Source: Candidatus Bathyarchaeota archaeon (GTDB lineage Archaea; Thermoproteota; Bathyarchaeia; Bathyarchaeales; WUQV01). Taken from it: a DNA stretch of 64,000 nt. How positions within the stretch are numbered: position 1 is the first letter of the stretch; the number at the start of each line of letters is the position of its first letter. Positions 3,414 through 8,872 of this stretch are shown here, piece after piece. A program made the translations under genes and the position numbers. Location: positions 10,879-74,878 of the forward strand of contig JAGGVF010000012.1 in the NCBI GenBank assembly GCA_021158125.1, read 5' to 3'. The notes under the pieces are model-generated. The model saw nothing but the letters and a program-made list of their open reading frames with translations, searched no databases and was not told the DNA's origin.

Positions 3414-4673
3414 CTATACGGTTTTCCTTTTCAGCTTTCTCAACTTCCTAAATTTTATCCTTGCAGTTAGAATCTTCTCAGTCGCAAAGAATTTCGCCGC
3501 AACGTATAGAATTACAACCGTAAATATCGAAACGTAGACTATTCCACCTATTGCCATCAAATAGTTTCCAGTTACAGCTGCCCTAGCAGCAAGTATCGGA
3601 TGAGAATAAGGTATTGCCAAAATCAAAATTTGTAAAGGAAGCGAAAGCGAAAAAACGTCTGTGTACATTAGTAGAAACATTGGAATGAATATTAAGGGGT
3701 AAATGTAGCCTACGATCGCTTGGGCGCTCCTGACATCTTCTGTGAAAGCGGATATTACAACAGCTAAGGCAAGTGCCGAAAGTAGGGAAACAAATAGAGA
3801 AATGCCCATCAGAACATAGCCCAGAAGACTTGGAGCTAAACCCAGTTCGGCTAGGTCTACTCCAACCTCTGTGGGAACAAAAGTGAACATTTCACCCATA
3901 TAGTAGGTAAATCCGATAAGGTAGGCTACCGCCCCAAGTAATGCAACAAAAATCGAGCCGAAAAGCTTACCCATTAATATAGTAAAGCGATTAATTGGAA
4001 GACTAAGCAAAGTTTCAAGGGTTTTCTCCTCCTTTTCAGAGGCAACCGACGTTGCAGCCAACTGCATAGCAAGAACAATTATAATTGAAAGGGCAATCGG
4101 CGTCGCAACATATTGAGACATGGCCAAGTTAAAAAGCACCTCGGGAGGAATCGGTAGCGGTTTTCCTTTAACAACAGAGTTTTTGGAAACCGTGAAAGGA
4201 TCTGGAGCCCACAGCCTCTTTACCATTTCAATCATGGAGTTCACAGCCTCTGAACGTGCACTCTCAACCATTCCGGAACCACTGTAAACGCTGTAAGTCT
4301 TAAGCTGAGCCTTTTCCCCTTCAGTTACGTTTTGGCTAAACCCTTTCGGAATAACTATTAAATCCGTAAGATTGTAAATTTGCATTTGCTGTACAGCTTG
4401 GCTTTCGTCAGAAGCATTTATGACCGTAACGTTTGCGCCTAGACCTATTAAATTCTCAATTAACGCCTGGCTCCAATTTCCATTGTCAAGGTCGGCTACT
4501 CCAACAGTAACTTGTTTAACGCTTTCCTGAACTTGTGTAAAAATAGACTGCATTGCAAAACCCATTATCGGAAACATTATTAAGGGAACTATAATCATTC
4601 CCAGCAGTATTCTCGGATCTCTAATAAGCTCCTTAACTTCTTTCGAAATAATGGCCTTCAGATCTCTAAGCAT
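3414..4673 (-). CDS. ABC-2/NatB-like exporter permease
   Basis: KEVKELIRDPR N-terminus, extracytoplasmic domain, SVASEKEEKTLETLLSLP, multiple TM segments; overlaps ATPase gene. Confidence 0.85.
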   Translation of the reverse strand: MLRDLKAIISKEVKELIRDPRILLGMIIVPLIMFPIMGFAMQSIFTQVQESVKQVTVGVADLDNGNWSQALIENLIGLGANVTVINASDESQAVQQMQIYNLTDLIVIPKGFSQNVTEGEKAQLKTYSVYSGSGMVESARSEAVNSMIEMVKRLWAPDPFTVSKNSVVKGKPLPIPPEVLFNLAMSQYVATPIALSIIIVLAMQLAATSVASEKEEKTLETLLSLPINRFTILMGKLFGSIFVALLGAVAYLIGFTYYMGEMFTFVPTEVGVDLAELGLAPSLLGYVLMGISLFVSLLSALALAVVISAFTEDVRSAQAIVGYIYPLIFIPMFLLMYTDVFSLSLPLQILILAIPYSHPILAARAAVTGNYLMAIGGIVYVSIFTVVILYVAAKFFATEKILTARIKFRKLRKLKRKTV

Positions 4674-5403
4674 GGCCCGTCACCTTAACAAAGACTTCTT
4701 CTAGGTTTTCGGCATTATATTCAGATTTAAGCTTCTCAGGAGAACCTTCAGCCACTATTTTCCCTTTATTTATTAATGCAACCCTATCGCATAGATACTC
4801 AACTTCCAACATGTTGTGACTAGAAAGCAGAACAGTAACTCCGAATTCCTCCACGTATCTTTTAATTATATTTCTAACATGAAAAGAATGTACAACGTCT
4901 AATCCGCTTGTTGGTTCATCCAAAACTGCAAGTTTGGGCTTAATCATCAAAGCCCTTGCAACCAAAAGCCTACGTTTCATCCCCTTACTGTAAGTCTTAA
5001 TTCTATCATAGAGCCTTTCACCTAAACCAGAAATTTCAGCCGCTTGCTCAACCATACTTCTAATTTCATCCCTGTTACCAGCGCTAAAACTGGCCATAAA
5101 CTCCAAATACTCCATTCCGGAAAGATTCTTATAGGCTCCAGCCTCTTCGGGAAGGTAACTTATAAGCCTACGAACTTCCTCAGCCTTGCTTACAACGTCT
5201 AATCCAAAAACTTTCACACTGCCAGAAGTAGGCAAAAGCAAAGTGGCAATTATCCTTAAAGATGTTGTTTTTCCAGCGCCATTAGGCCCTATAAGCCCGT
5301 AAATCTCCCCTTTTTCAACGTTAAAGGTTAACCCGTCTAAAGCCCGAACATTACCAAAGACTTTAACTAAATTATTAACTTCAACAGCGGCCATAGCATC
5401 CAC
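4666..5403 (-). CDS. ABC transporter ATP-binding protein (NatA/CcmA-like)
   Basis: GPNGAGKT, YSKGM signature, LDEP, SSH. Confidence 0.92.
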   Translation of the reverse strand: MDAMAAVEVNNLVKVFGNVRALDGLTFNVEKGEIYGLIGPNGAGKTTSLRIIATLLLPTSGSVKVFGLDVVSKAEEVRRLISYLPEEAGAYKNLSGMEYLEFMASFSAGNRDEIRSMVEQAAEISGLGERLYDRIKTYSKGMKRRLLVARALMIKPKLAVLDEPTSGLDVVHSFHVRNIIKRYVEEFGVTVLLSSHNMLEVEYLCDRVALINKGKIVAEGSPEKLKSEYNAENLEEVFVKVTGHA

Positions 5404-5553: not shown

Positions 5554-6570
5554 CTAAGGTTTCCATGAAGCGAGGTCTTCTGCTACTTTCGCCACCATAT
5601 CCACGCCTAAAATCTCAGTTTCGTATAATGGAATTATTGCTCTAACCATGGGCCAAAGATCTCTCTTAATTATTTTCAAGTAGCCCTCTTGTTCCTTAAA
5701 CTTGTTAGTTAAATACTCGGAGACCTTTTTTCTCTTTACAAGTTCTTCAGGAATAACTTGGTTTACGATAACCCCGCCAGTTGGTATATTGAAACCTTGA
5801 ACCATCCCAATGAACCTCTTAACAACAGCTATTGGAAGCGCTAAGGGCAATGTTACGAAGAAGAAAGCCGTTCTTTCCGGATCGTTAAATATTTCTTTAG
5901 CTTTCTTTATTCTTTCGTTCATTTCAAGCAGATCGGCGATCAACGGGTCCTTTTTGACTTCTTCTTGAACTTTTTCCTTTCTAAATGATAGTTTCACCCT
6001 TAGGGAAAGCGCTTCTTTTCTGCTCTTTATCATTCGGCTTAGCCAGAGCCCGTAAATTTTGCTTAGTCCGAGAAGTCTAACTGCGTTGGCGACTGCCGCT
6101 GTGTCAAAAACTATTCTGTCGTATTCCTCAGCTTTGTTCAGCATTATCTCCATGGTTTCGTCAAACATTGCGCTCTCTTCGAAAGCCGGGTTAGTTGACG
6201 CTATATCCACGAATTCGTCGGCTTTCATTGAGATGTCTGCCCATTTCAGAAACATTCTAAGCTTTTCTGCAAGTTGGGCTTTATACTTCTCCTTCCTTTC
6301 GGTTATATCAACTTCGATTGCATAAAGGTTCTTTGCGCCTTTTACTGGTTTAACTACGCCTCCTGTTAAGTCCTGTTGAAACAGACTGGAAAGCGAATGA
6401 ACAGGGTTTAAGGAGGCTAGCAGAACTTTTTCTCCCTTTGAAGCAAAGTGGTAGGCTATGCCCGCGGCGGCTATGGTTTTTCCTACTCCGCCTTTTCCTC
6501 CAGTGAACATAAATTTTAATTTCGGATGCGTTTCAACAAATTTGCTAAAGGTTACATGTTCTTTTGGCAA
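5554..6570 (-). CDS. ArsA/Get3-family ATPase, catalytically degenerate copy
   Basis: GGKGGVGKT intact; switch I SLNPVHSL (normally STDPAHS); switch II DTAAVAN (normally DTAPTGH). Start probably TTG 6570 behind GGAGG, just after the upstream stop. Confidence 0.85.
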   Translation of the reverse strand: MPKEHVTFSKFVETHPKLKFMFTGGKGGVGKTIAAAGIAYHFASKGEKVLLASLNPVHSLSSLFQQDLTGGVVKPVKGAKNLYAIEVDITERKEKYKAQLAEKLRMFLKWADISMKADEFVDIASTNPAFEESAMFDETMEIMLNKAEEYDRIVFDTAAVANAVRLLGLSKIYGLWLSRMIKSRKEALSLRVKLSFRKEKVQEEVKKDPLIADLLEMNERIKKAKEIFNDPERTAFFFVTLPLALPIAVVKRFIGMVQGFNIPTGGVIVNQVIPEELVKRKKVSEYLTNKFKEQEGYLKIIKRDLWPMVRAIIPLYETEILGVDMVAKVAEDLASWKP

Positions 6571-6572
6571 AA

Positions 6573-7577
6573 TTATATACCTCCTACTTCCCAAGGTTTT
6601 TCAAAAAGGTATTCTGCCACTTTTGCAATCATTTTGAATCCTTTAGGTTCTCTGTCGAACATGGGAACTATTGCTCTAACGTATTCTCCAAGTTCCTTCT
6701 TGATTTCCTCCATGTACATTTGCTGCATTTTTATTCTGTTCCTTAAGAAGTCGCTTAAATCTTCTCTTTCAAGCAGTGAAACAGGATAGACTTGGTTTAC
6801 TATTACTCCGCTGAGGGTTATGCCCAATTTTTCGAACATTTCCAAGGCTCTTTTTGTATCCAAAATCGCCATTTTTTCGGGTATTAAAACCATGAAAAAG
6901 GCTGTTGTGTCGGGGTTCGTTAAGGTTTCTCTGAAGAAGTCAAGTTTTGATCTGATATCTCTTAGTTCGTCAAGTATTGCGTCTCTTCTTTCTATTTCTC
7001 CGCCTCTGATTACTGCTTCGGCTTCTTTTAGTTCTGCGGCTTTCCTCCTCGCTTCTTCCATTTTGTCTATCCAAGCGTCAAGTATGGTTGCCATACTGAT
7101 CATTCTGACTCCGTGGCCAAAAGGTGGCATATCAAAAATGTAAAGGTCATATTTCCCTGCAGATAGGAGTTCAGCCATGGCGTCGTATGTTGCACTTTCG
7201 TACATGGCTGGTTCGGAAGCAGCTGTTTTTATGTATTCGTCTATTTCTGCGGGTAATTCGTCGATTTTGTACATTTCCTTTATTTGGTTTCGCACATGCT
7301 CTTGAAACTCGGCTATCCTCTTATCTCCGTCAATTTCAACAGCGTAAAGGTTTGGTTGAAGCTCTTGTTCACCTTTTCCAAATAAATCTCTTTCAAAGAC
7401 GTCGGTTAGTGAAGCTTGGGGGTCTGTACTGAAACATATGACTTTTTTCTTTTGTTTTGCAAACCAGTAGGCTGTTGCAGCGCTTGCAGTGGTTTTTCCG
7501 AGGCCGCCTTTGCCAGCGTATACTATGACTCTTAGTTTTGGGTGTTTCTGAATGAATTCTTTGAGGGACATCACCAA
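6573..7577 (-). CDS. ArsA/Get3-family ATPase, canonical motifs
   Basis: AGKGGLGKTT, STDPQASL, DMPPFGH, LIPEKMAILDT, VIVNQV. Confidence 0.88.
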   Translation of the reverse strand: MVMSLKEFIQKHPKLRVIVYAGKGGLGKTTASAATAYWFAKQKKKVICFSTDPQASLTDVFERDLFGKGEQELQPNLYAVEIDGDKRIAEFQEHVRNQIKEMYKIDELPAEIDEYIKTAASEPAMYESATYDAMAELLSAGKYDLYIFDMPPFGHGVRMISMATILDAWIDKMEEARRKAAELKEAEAVIRGGEIERRDAILDELRDIRSKLDFFRETLTNPDTTAFFMVLIPEKMAILDTKRALEMFEKLGITLSGVIVNQVYPVSLLEREDLSDFLRNRIKMQQMYMEEIKKELGEYVRAIVPMFDREPKGFKMIAKVAEYLFEKPWEVGGI

Positions 7578-7589
7578 GTTGTTTTCCTC

Positions 7590-7877
7590 CTAGTAGAGCA
7601 TGTCCGTTACGTCTTTTTCTTGCAAAAGTTGCCGTTTCCAAGATTTAATATTGGGTAGGGCGTAGGGTAGCAGTTTCAGTGAATAGTATGGTGGTAGAAT
7701 GGGCAGTCCAAGCATATCTCCCAGAGTGATGAGCATGAAAAGGTTTTCCATGAGCATTCTCTGTTTTAGCATTTGCCTAACAACTACATGGGAGGCCATT
7801 CCATAGAAAGTTTCTTTAAGGGCTCTTTTAGCCTCGCCAAAAATCTTTTTTTCCTCTTTTTCCTTTTTGTTCGGCAT
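7590..7877 (-). CDS. Small CstA/ArsA-associated protein A
   Basis: 95 aa; core LFMLITLGDMLGLPILPPYYSLKLLPY; paralog of 7958-8236; same strand as the ATPases, 12 bp from the next gene. Confidence 0.7.
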   Translation of the reverse strand: MPNKKEKEEKKIFGEAKRALKETFYGMASHVVVRQMLKQRMLMENLFMLITLGDMLGLPILPPYYSLKLLPYALPNIKSWKRQLLQEKDVTDMLY

Positions 7878-7957: not shown

Positions 7958-8236
7958 TTAAGCACTTTCTGAAACTTTCTCAAAGAAATCCTTATCTTTT
8001 AAGGTCTCTTTTTTCCATAGTTCTATAAAAGGAAAGAAATACGGTAACAGCTTATACTTATAAATTGGCGGCAGCAGTGGCAGTCCAAGCATGTCTCCAT
8101 AAAGGAGAGTCATAAAAGTAAAGTTATGAGTCATAATCTGTTTTCTAATAACCTCTACGTGACCGTGAACTGTGAATCCATAAATAAAGTCGGAAAGAGC
8201 CTTTTTTAATCGGCTTTTAATCTCTGCAAAATTCAA
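7958..8236 (-). CDS. Small CstA/ArsA-associated protein B
   Basis: 92 aa; core FMTLLYGDMLGLPLLPPIYKYKLLPY aligns with protein A. Confidence 0.7.
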   Translation of the reverse strand: MNFAEIKSRLKKALSDFIYGFTVHGHVEVIRKQIMTHNFTFMTLLYGDMLGLPLLPPIYKYKLLPYFFPFIELWKKETLKDKDFFEKVSESA

Positions 8237-8317: not shown

Positions 8318-8872
8318 GTGGGAAGAACGGGGAAAAAGGACGTACTCGTAGAATGTAGAAACTTGCTTATGGGCAACGCGGAGTTTCTAAGATTCAAAGT
8401 TCCAGAAGAATGGAATGTTGGCCCTGTTCCATTTGAAACCGATGTTGAAAACTGGACTGAAATAAATGGAAAAACTTGGGTGACGAAAGGCCAAACCCGA
8501 GTTCACATAGTTCTGGGTGAAAAAAGAAGGCGAATTGATCTTTTAGTGAAAGCTAAGGGTTATAATAAAAAATTCGATGTTGAAAACTGGCTAGAGAAAA
8601 AAAGGAGAAAAATTGAAGACGCAAAAGGAAGAAAAATGAAGAAAACTGGATTTCTACTTGTAAAAGACCATAAACTGCCGTACATAATTTATTCTAGAAC
8701 ACGGAAAAAGTTTGGACTTTTCGGGAAGGAAAATGAAGAGGTGCTTTTGAACGCAGTTTTGAAATGTGAAAAAACATCTAGGATAATATTCTTAGATGCT
8801 CATCTAAATTTTGACGATAATGAATTAATAGATACCCTACTTGATGTTCTTTCGACCTTTACGTGCCATTGA
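8318..8872 (+). CDS. Hypothetical basic soluble protein
   Basis: 184-aa ORF filling the gap between neighbours; FKVPEEW motif, C-terminal CH. Confidence 0.55.
   Translation: MGRTGKKDVLVECRNLLMGNAEFLRFKVPEEWNVGPVPFETDVENWTEINGKTWVTKGQTRVHIVLGEKRRRIDLLVKAKGYNKKFDVENWLEKKRRKIEDAKGRKMKKTGFLLVKDHKLPYIIYSRTRKKFGLFGKENEEVLLNAVLKCEKTSRIIFLDAHLNFDDNELIDTLLDVLSTFTCH

Follow-up and report, generated by a model that had tools for sequence, protein, structure and literature searches.

A Tandem Pair of Get3/ArsA-Family ATPases with One Asn-Bearing Site, Probably an Asymmetric Dimer, in the CstA Gene Cluster of a Bathyarchaeota Archaeon

We describe two adjacent genes in a 64,000-nucleotide stretch of DNA (referred to below as the window) from a Candidatus Bathyarchaeota archaeon (contig JAGGVF010000012.1 of assembly GCA_021158125.1, positions 10,879 to 74,878). 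The genes encode two ATPases of the TRC40/GET3/ArsA superfamily, which we name after the residue found at the catalytic position of switch I: the D-copy has the usual Asp, and the N-copy has Asn in its place. Sequence comparison and a structural model suggest that the two proteins probably join in a single ATPase dimer of Get3/ArsA fold with built-in asymmetry, that is, a heterodimer rather than two homodimers, in which hydrolysis of adenosine triphosphate (ATP) would be lost at the Asn-bearing site. The data are best read as a heterodimer with one hydrolytic site because of the fixed pairing of Asn with Asp, the adjacency of the two genes, the co-divergence of the two protein families and a model with an ArsA-like arrangement. 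Together the two genes form the core of the cluster cstA-cstX-cstY-arsA described by Castillo and Saier, a connection overlooked in an earlier note on this DNA.

The main features of the two genes, in window coordinates, are the following.

5554 to 6570, minus strand: N-copy, an ArsA/Get3-family ATPase of 338 amino acids read from TTG 6570, in which switch I has a natural Asp to Asn change and switch II is degenerate.
6475 to 6501, minus strand: deviant Walker A motif of the N-copy, GGKGGVGKT, with the signature Lys26 and the P-loop intact.
6406 to 6408, minus strand: codon AAC of N-copy Asn55, at the position of Get3 Asp57 and ArsA Asp45.
6085 to 6105, minus strand: switch II of the N-copy, DTAAVAN (Asp156 to Asn162), in which Ala161 replaces the Gly of DTAPTGH and, here, Asn replaces the His.
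6573 to 7577, minus strand: D-copy, an ArsA/Get3-family ATPase of 334 amino acids that keeps the catalytic Asp and the switch II Gly-His; the presumed hydrolytic subunit.
7422 to 7424, minus strand: codon GAC of D-copy Asp52, in the switch I motif STDPQAS as read in the sequence.
7113 to 7133, minus strand: switch II of the D-copy, DMPPFGH, as read in the sequence.

The host genome (Bathyarchaeia, 1.37 Mb, 98% complete) has no true ArsA/Get3 genes other than this pair. The two genes are the last in a tight operon of four on the minus strand, where they follow genes for proteins of 92 amino acids (7958-8236) and 95 amino acids (7590-7877). As originally listed, the open reading frame of the N-copy starts at TTG 6594, encodes 346 amino acids and overlaps the D-copy. 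The start is probably TTG 6570 instead, because the homologues are 338 amino acids long and a GGAGG sits 9 nucleotides before this codon, and with this start the N-copy begins 2 nucleotides past the D-copy stop codon. Both proteins are members of the TRC40/GET3/ArsA superfamily, with profile scores of 200 bits (N-copy) and 228 bits (D-copy) for PF02374 (cut-off 24.3) and of 202.5 and 225.4 bits, respectively, for TIGR00345 (cut-off 135), and they are 33% identical to each other. The N-copy contains no Cys and the D-copy contains one, so that the absence of both the metalloid-binding Cys set of ArsA and the CxxC of Get3, pointed out in the earlier note, is borne out by the count.

The N-copy has the motifs GGKGGVGKT and LLASLNPVHS, followed by the switch II stretch FDTAAVANAVRLL that holds FDTAAVANA, and the D-copy has AGKGGLGKT and CFSTDPQAS, followed by FDMPPFGHG. 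Reading the sequence again confirmed what the earlier note had reported of these motifs, namely SLNPVH (with AAC at 6406-6408), DTAAVAN and a retained signature Lys (in GGKGGVGKT) in the downstream copy, and STDP and DMPPFGH in the upstream copy. In an alignment of the two proteins with archaeal Get3 (3zq6) and Chlamydomonas ArsA1 (5zme), the N-copy has its Asn precisely at the Asp of STDPAHS, and the position of the Get3 CxxC is occupied by CEFC in 3zq6 versus SEYL and SDFL in the proteins of the pair. In Get3 the corresponding residue, Asp57, primes the attacking water (PMC10248533), and the title of PDB entry 9ns5, 'Get3(D57N)-Get4/5 complex (ATP-bound)', shows the D57N form as an ATP trap. 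The N-copy retains the P-loop, the signature Lys, the Walker B Asp and the adenine-binding Asn of VNQ.

The conservation of these residues was assessed in two collections, 1) the 120 best database homologues, with 62-100% identity, and 2) the loci found in a genome scan with one genome per species, which gave at least 542 confirmed loci; the locus counts below refer to the best 80 of them, down to 50% identity. The Asn is present in all 120 homologues in the form S-L-N-P-[VI]-H, together with D-[CT]-AAVANA. In the 80 loci, the N-copy invariably has S[LTF]NP[VI]HS and GKGGVGKT, and S[TV]DPQAS is found in the D-copy of each of the 75 loci where it could be read; the D-copy of the window has GKGGLGKT, and the signature Lys is present in all orthologues of both proteins. 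These loci come from archaea, including Thermoproteota (Bathyarchaeia, Pyrodictiaceae, Sulfolobales and Desulfurococcales), Nitrososphaerota/Caldarchaeum, Thermoplasmata and Asgard lineages, and from bacteria, including Chloroflexota, Bacillota (Symbiobacterium and Thermaerobacter) and Actinomycetota. The earlier note had proposed checking whether the Asn is conserved in orthologous pairs and had named isolated decay or a sequencing error as what would refute its interpretation. Not one of the 80 N-copies has Asp and not one of the 75 D-copies has lost it, and the invariance of the Asn rules out both of these explanations.

Switch II follows the same pattern. Ala161 of the N-copy is 100% conserved, versus Gly154 of the D-copy, which is also 100% conserved, and the motif as a whole occurs in the N-copy as DTAAVAN, DCAAVAN, DTAPTAN or DTAPVAH. 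Judged from its sequence, the N-copy thus carries two invariant substitutions of a kind that classically blocks hydrolysis. At 14 alignment columns the D and N families each reach at least 90% conservation, with different residues. The degeneration of the two copies is complementary and not one-sided because the D-copy departs from the consensus too, with DPQAS for DPAHS (an invariant change of His to Ala) and with DMPPFGH for DTAPTGH (loss of Thr-Ala).

Among the 150 nearest representatives at 50% identity, Asn at this position is limited to the N family and to a few fused, two-domain ArsA-like proteins. One of these, P0196, has SVNPAHS and DMAAGAH in its N-terminal half and STDPQRS and DTAPTGH in its C-terminal half, and another, P0222, has SINPSHS in its C-terminal half. 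We therefore dropped the idea that the Asn is a marker unique to the N family. P0196 and P0222 branch elsewhere in the tree, on long branches; their origin seems independent, and dimers of this half-Asn kind may have evolved repeatedly.

A separate observation concerns the helical subdomain of the N-copy, which contains a basic amphipathic stretch, GLWLSRMIKSRKEALSLRVKLSFRK, at residues ~174-198 (window positions ~5977-6051, minus strand). Outside the catalytic motifs it ranks with the best-conserved parts of the N-copy. The stretch is nearly invariant in an alignment of 14 close homologues, and residues 179-198 have a mean conservation of 0.80 across 79 N-copy sequences. CstX, CstA or the membrane may dock on this surface.

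The two genes are inherited as a unit. In all 80 loci the D-copy lies directly upstream of the N-copy, and the spacing from the stop of D to the start of N is mostly between -4 and +8 nucleotides (2 nucleotides in the window). Among 151 genomes of the class, the N type occurs in 11, and in 11 of 11 cases the D type is found immediately upstream, with zero unpaired genes. Pairwise identity averages 0.549 among the D-copies and 0.552 among the N-copies, and since the two values are nearly equal the N-copy is as constrained as its partner; with purifying selection as strong as that on the D-copy, it is not a decaying gene. The distances among D-copies and those among N-copies are correlated with r = 0.95. 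In a quick maximum-likelihood tree the N clade has a Shimodaira-Hasegawa-like approximate likelihood ratio test (SH-aLRT) support of 100 and the D clade of 99, the internal topologies of these sister clades mirror each other, and both form a clade (support 96) with P0186, a single-copy relative of 315 amino acids with the canonical motifs STDPSHS and DTAPIGHT, which may represent the unduplicated state. The tree points to a single ancient duplication followed by co-inheritance and transfer of the pair as a module.

When D and N were concatenated and searched against 5.8 billion proteins, the long matches that could have been natural D-N fusions were P0123 and P0129, and both were discarded as garbled, out-of-frame singletons. 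An apparent fusion of CstX with D, P0130, was also a singleton with a garbled, out-of-frame junction. All three probably stem from frameshifts in the assemblies of high-GC bacteria.

In seven related loci the D and N genes share one reading frame with a single stop codon between them, which allows the pair to be modelled as one chain. We used the read-through chain (D, stop, N) of locus L011, the closest of the seven frame-sharing relatives (75% identical to the window in the D-copy and 73% in the N-copy), with an alignment of the seven paired chains; a deep block-diagonal alignment was left unused after MAFFT had piled the D rows on the N half (1383 columns). The AlphaFold model has a predicted local distance difference test score (pLDDT) of 73 and a predicted template modelling score (pTM) of 0.59, with pLDDT values of 80-93 in the nucleotide-binding cores and 47-65 in the helical subdomains. 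In Foldseek it matches full-length, two-domain ArsA (1f48, 1ihu, 1ii0 and 9nbo) over ~670 columns with TMq 0.65-0.67, TMt 0.75-0.82 and a root-mean-square deviation of 4.9-6.9 Å, and Get3 chains match one half at a time (TMq ~0.38, TMt ~0.8 per half). The two halves of the predicted structure are placed as in the ArsA pseudo-dimer. The model indicates compatibility with this arrangement and not a preference for it because the chain is artificially tethered and the alignment is shallow.

The window holds every recurring component of the gene module to which the pair belongs. The remaining ones are listed here.

7590 to 7877, minus strand: CstX1, 95 amino acids, of the type that adjoins the D-copy upstream in related loci, with a moderately hydrophobic, Pro-rich core LFMLITLGDMLGxPxLPPYYSLKLLPY.
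7958 to 8236, minus strand: CstX2, a CstX1 paralogue of 92 amino acids (48% identity).
8318 to 8872, plus strand: conserved protein of no known family, 184 amino acids, a frequent module member.
8837 to 9514, minus strand: CstY, 225 amino acids (start ATG 9514); it has a membrane helix at its N-terminus and, in the cytosol, an alpha/beta domain of CCDC47/TtfA fold.
9603 to 11321, plus strand: CstA-family transporter, the sole CstA in the genome.

The recurrence of these genes was counted in the 80 loci and in the subset of 33 loci with full flanks, i.e., with 4.5 kb or more of sequence to either side. At least one small CstX paralogue is found within 75 of the 80 loci, and a second, more divergent one within 60 (31 of the 33 with full flanks), so that two small proteins accompany two ATPases in 31 of the 33. 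A CstA-family transporter is encoded in 66 loci (30 of 33). The protein of ~220 amino acids with one N-terminal membrane helix, CstY, was detected in at least 39 loci (at least 21 of 33) and the protein of ~180 amino acids that belongs to no family in at least 36 (at least 18 of 33), the counts for these two being limited by the BLAST search. In the window, the 3' end of the gene for the 184-amino-acid protein overlaps the 3' end of cstY convergently by ~36 nucleotides. On the other side of the pair, downstream of the N-copy, lies an ABC-2 type transporter (ATPase and permease, 3414-5403, minus strand). It was considered as a part of the module and dropped, being conserved solely in one relative that is 93% identical (L009).

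The CstX type adjoining the D-copy upstream is extremely conserved (...LFMLITLGDMLGxPxLPPYYSLRLLPY...WKRR). No credible Pfam family was found for CstX at E <= 0.001, nor when the threshold was widened to E <= 10, and the NCBIfam model 'cory-CC-star' (NF041419) gives weak matches with E = 7e-8 for CstX1 and 1.5e-3 for its paralogue; the CstX proteins of the window do not end in Cys-Cys. The maximum Kyte-Doolittle hydrophobicity over 19 residues in the hydrophobic core LFMLITLGDMLGLPILPPY is 1.44 in CstX1 and 1.16 in CstX2, and we do not call these proteins tail-anchored because such values are below the usual threshold for a transmembrane helix. E. coli CstA requires a small partner, YbdD (PMC5847655), and we could not demonstrate that CstX is related to E. 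coli YbdD/YjiX (DUF466).

The AlphaFold model of CstY has a pLDDT of 95.5. Its best matches in the fold search are 7tm3_4, a chain of a multipass-translocon entry (E = 3e-10, TMq 0.74), the chains 9i78_4 and 6w6l_7, and mycobacterial TtfA (6t84), which the title of that entry calls a trehalose-monomycolate transport factor. The three translocon chains (7tm3_4, 9i78_4 and 6w6l_7) are presumably CCDC47. In agreement with the fold search, 8 of 40 CstY orthologues match Pfam PF07946 (CCDC47); a sequence-profile search of CstY against PDB chains gave nothing, and the link to CCDC47 comes from the fold search and the Pfam scan. TtfA works with the MmpL3 transporter.

The gene content agrees with the system described by Castillo and Saier in 2010 (PMC2963123), who reported 26 associations of CstA with ArsA and a cstA-cstX-cstY-arsA cluster in which CstX has ~90 amino acids and CstY, found in archaea, has ~210 amino acids and one transmembrane segment. 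As in the window, the ArsA homologues of their clusters 14-18 are single-domain proteins of ~330 amino acids, ars genes and the metalloid Cys are absent, and tandem pairs with ~25-31% identity occur in cluster 15; neighbouring ArsA paralogues with 31% and 25% identity were noted in two organisms (PMC2963123). They also observed, at the position discussed here, "D only substituted by N" and proposed that the ArsA homologue energises CstA (PMC2963123). Their analysis differs from ours in that the ArsA homologues were taken as generic energisers of CstA, and that neither the status of D and N as fixed, always-paired subunits, nor the hydrolysis-blocking changes of the N form, nor the CCDC47/TtfA fold of CstY was recognised. 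No experiment on the CstA/CstX/CstY-ArsA system was found in the literature searched. Because the cluster was described in 2010, what is new here is the reading of the D/N dichotomy and the CstY fold, and not the cluster; the gene cluster, the alternation of D and N (2010) and heterodimeric Get3-like pairs (BagAB) were already known.

Among characterised proteins, the pair shares its fold and the architecture of the deviant Walker A dimer with Get3/TRC40 and archaeal Get3 (3zq6, 3ug6 and 2woj), and the best solved single-domain relatives are 3zq6 (E = 6e-49) and 3ug6 (E = 7e-47). In Get3, a homodimer, the two catalytic sites are equivalent and a Zn-binding CxxC is usual (in eukaryotic and some archaeal forms), whereas the pair consists of two diverged subunits without CxxC, has a natural equivalent of D57N in one of them and, as far as the genes tell, has dedicated small partners rather than a broad range of clients. 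No account of the D/N pair is given in two papers on the diversity of Get3 (PMC6593721, PMC10248533). The ArsA pump (1f48, 9nbo) is a pseudo-dimer of homologous, non-equivalent halves and docks on a secondary carrier, ArsB, in both of which it resembles the arrangement considered here. It differs in being a single fused chain with Asp and DTAPTGH in both halves, with three metalloid Cys, and encoded in an ars operon. Rv3679 and Rv3680 of M. tuberculosis are said in the primary BagAB paper to form a heterodimeric ATPase. These proteins, BagA and BagB (6bs3-6bs5), are likewise adjacent Get3-like paralogues with no role in arsenic resistance, but they are distant relatives without a CstA/CstX context: the BagA equivalog (NF053622) gives 46.7 bits for the N-copy and 43.2 bits for the D-copy versus a cut-off of 400, and the BagB equivalog (NF053621) gives 26.6 and 40.8 bits, respectively, versus a cut-off of 521. 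In two BagAB-like pairs of an actinobacterial genome, G003 (L101, 980-3192, and L102, 1170-3259), the BagB-like subunit has GSGGVGKT, so that the signature Lys is lost while the Asp is kept, and these pairs have become asymmetric by a route different from that of the D/N pair. The BagA-like subunits of L101 and L102 also differ from each other, with EVEG in one and EVDA at the corresponding place in the other.

Heterodimeric ABC transporters (TM287/288, TAP1/2, CFTR) have a consensus site that turns over ATP and a degenerate site that binds it stably. They provide a mechanistic analogy only, as the ATPase fold and the transporter architecture are unrelated to those considered here. In the proposed mechanism, the D-copy, with its P-loop, Asp52 and switch II Gly-His in cis, would provide the only hydrolytic site of the dimer, which the signature Lys of the N-copy would complete in trans. 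The N-copy has an intact ATP-binding P-loop, but its water-activating Asp is replaced by Asn and the switch II Gly that senses the gamma-phosphate by Ala, and its site probably holds ATP without turnover. This ATP may act as a latch or structural nucleotide that keeps the dimer together, like the degenerate site of the ABC heterodimers. The dimer would be the ATPase core of the CstA module, which includes the CstA transporter, two CstX microproteins, the membrane anchor CstY and the 184-amino-acid protein. The genomic link suggests a functional coupling of the pair to CstA, and the most likely role is that ATP binding and hydrolysis act on CstA via the two CstX proteins, by controlling its activity, its gating or its assembly.

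Several points weigh against the proposal of a heterodimer with one hydrolytic site. Co-inheritance and translational coupling fit two homodimers acting in one pathway as well. The read-through model is an artificial fusion with 7 paired rows, for which AlphaFold may simply recall the ArsA arrangement, and no robust natural fusion of D and N was found in 5.8 billion proteins. In the window, the D-copy has an acidic stretch and the N-copy a basic one in place of the Get3 CxxC, but the charge complementarity at the dimer axis that this suggested was dropped, as it is unconserved and often reversed across 150 orthologues. That Asn would abolish hydrolysis extrapolates from mutants of Get3 and ArsA, and another residue might substitute for the Asp; activity of the D-copy is likewise assumed, given its DPQAS and DMPPFGH motifs. 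As for the coupling to CstA, 3 of the 33 loci with full flanks have no cstA within 6 kb.

If the subunits did not mix, D2 would be a cycling ATPase and N2 an ATP-locked scaffold or sensor, both serving the CstA module. Each copy does have its own signature Lys and P-loop, the relatives Get3, MinD and NifH are homodimers, one CstX paralogue per ATPase copy would match the 2+2 gene content, and a natural fusion is missing. We nevertheless consider two separate homodimers unlikely, as a complementary loss of canonical residues is easier to tolerate in a mixed dimer, the coupling of start and stop is tight and the co-variation strict (r = 0.95), the fused model takes the ArsA-like arrangement, and there are precedents for mixed assemblies in the Rv3679/Rv3680 pair, as reported, and in P0196 and P0222 with their one Asn-bearing half. 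A dimer of D and N could also be catalytic at both sites, the N-copy using another general base or a residue of its partner, with non-equivalent sites like A1 and A2 of ArsA. The N-copy is conserved like the D-copy and keeps all nucleotide-binding elements, and NosGet3d, with Glu at this position, keeps some activity (PMC10248533). Asn is unable to serve as a base, though, Get3 D57N is an ATP trap (9ns5), and the changes Asp to Asn and switch II Gly to Ala, both classic hydrolysis blockers, are both invariant, which makes catalysis at both sites quite improbable.

It is very unlikely that the pair is a general targeting factor for tail-anchored proteins, i.e., the archaeal equivalent of Get3 and not specific to CstA, even though the pair are the sole Get3-family genes of the genome, their closest solved relatives are archaeal Get3 proteins (3zq6, 3ug6), and the neighbouring CstY shares its fold with CCDC47, a membrane-protein biogenesis factor. 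In both archaea and bacteria the pair is strictly linked to cstA and cstX, a patchy spread (11 of 151 genomes of the class) is ill-suited to a housekeeping pathway, CxxC is absent, and the segments of the helical subdomain appear by eye to be charged or basic and not Met-rich and hydrophobic. As to arsenic, homologues are labelled 'arsenic transporter' or 'arsenite-transporting ATPase' in databases, and the pair might be read as a split ArsA pump ATPase, or the Asn as isolated decay, a pseudogene or a sequencing error; we regard the probability of all this as negligible. The Asn is invariant in 200 independent sequences, the frame is intact and the constraint strong. The earlier note's view that this is not an arsenite pump receives support from the missing Cys, the equivalog scores and the genome content: the ArsA equivalog TIGR04291 gives 91.8 bits for the N-copy and 102.1 bits for the D-copy versus a cut-off of 650; the metalloid-binding triad (C113, C172 and C422 in E. 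coli) is absent from proteins with 0 and 1 Cys in total; and the two are single-domain proteins of 338 and 334 amino acids versus ~580 in the fused, two-domain ArsA chain. Acr3 was not found in the host genome, the two weak ArsB-superfamily matches of that genome are both on other contigs, and the neighbours of the pair are cstX, cstY and cstA in place of an ars operon with arsB or acr3, arsD and arsR; neither ArsB nor ArsD is linked to the pair.

A wider proposal would take the seven genes as an unrecognised prokaryotic machine, common to archaea and bacteria, in which a Get3-fold heterodimer with one subunit permanently latched by ATP grips the dedicated hydrophobic microproteins CstX1 and CstX2 and, at the membrane with CstY, either makes CstA an ATP-gated or ATP-driven importer or inserts and assembles CstA and CstX. 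This is a speculation that we hold to be unlikely. If it is correct that D and N form one dimer, the pair would be a natural, ancient, cross-domain dimer of the Get3/ArsA class in which one of two catalytic sites has been given up. It would be the counterpart, among SIMIBI ATPases, of the ABC heterodimers with a degenerate site, and, as a natural 'D57N' dimer with one dead half, would make it possible to study the part played by either nucleotide site in a Get3-type ATPase. The analysis also corrects a widespread naming error, that of homologues called 'arsenic transporter' or 'arsenite-transporting ATPase'. It places the ATPase pair in a setting known from comparative genomics since 2010, where a CstA-family transporter is encoded with two ATPases, two microproteins and a membrane anchor of CCDC47/TtfA fold. 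Because the Get3 and CCDC47 folds both act in membrane-protein biogenesis in eukaryotes, their being encoded together here could bear on the origin of that machinery.

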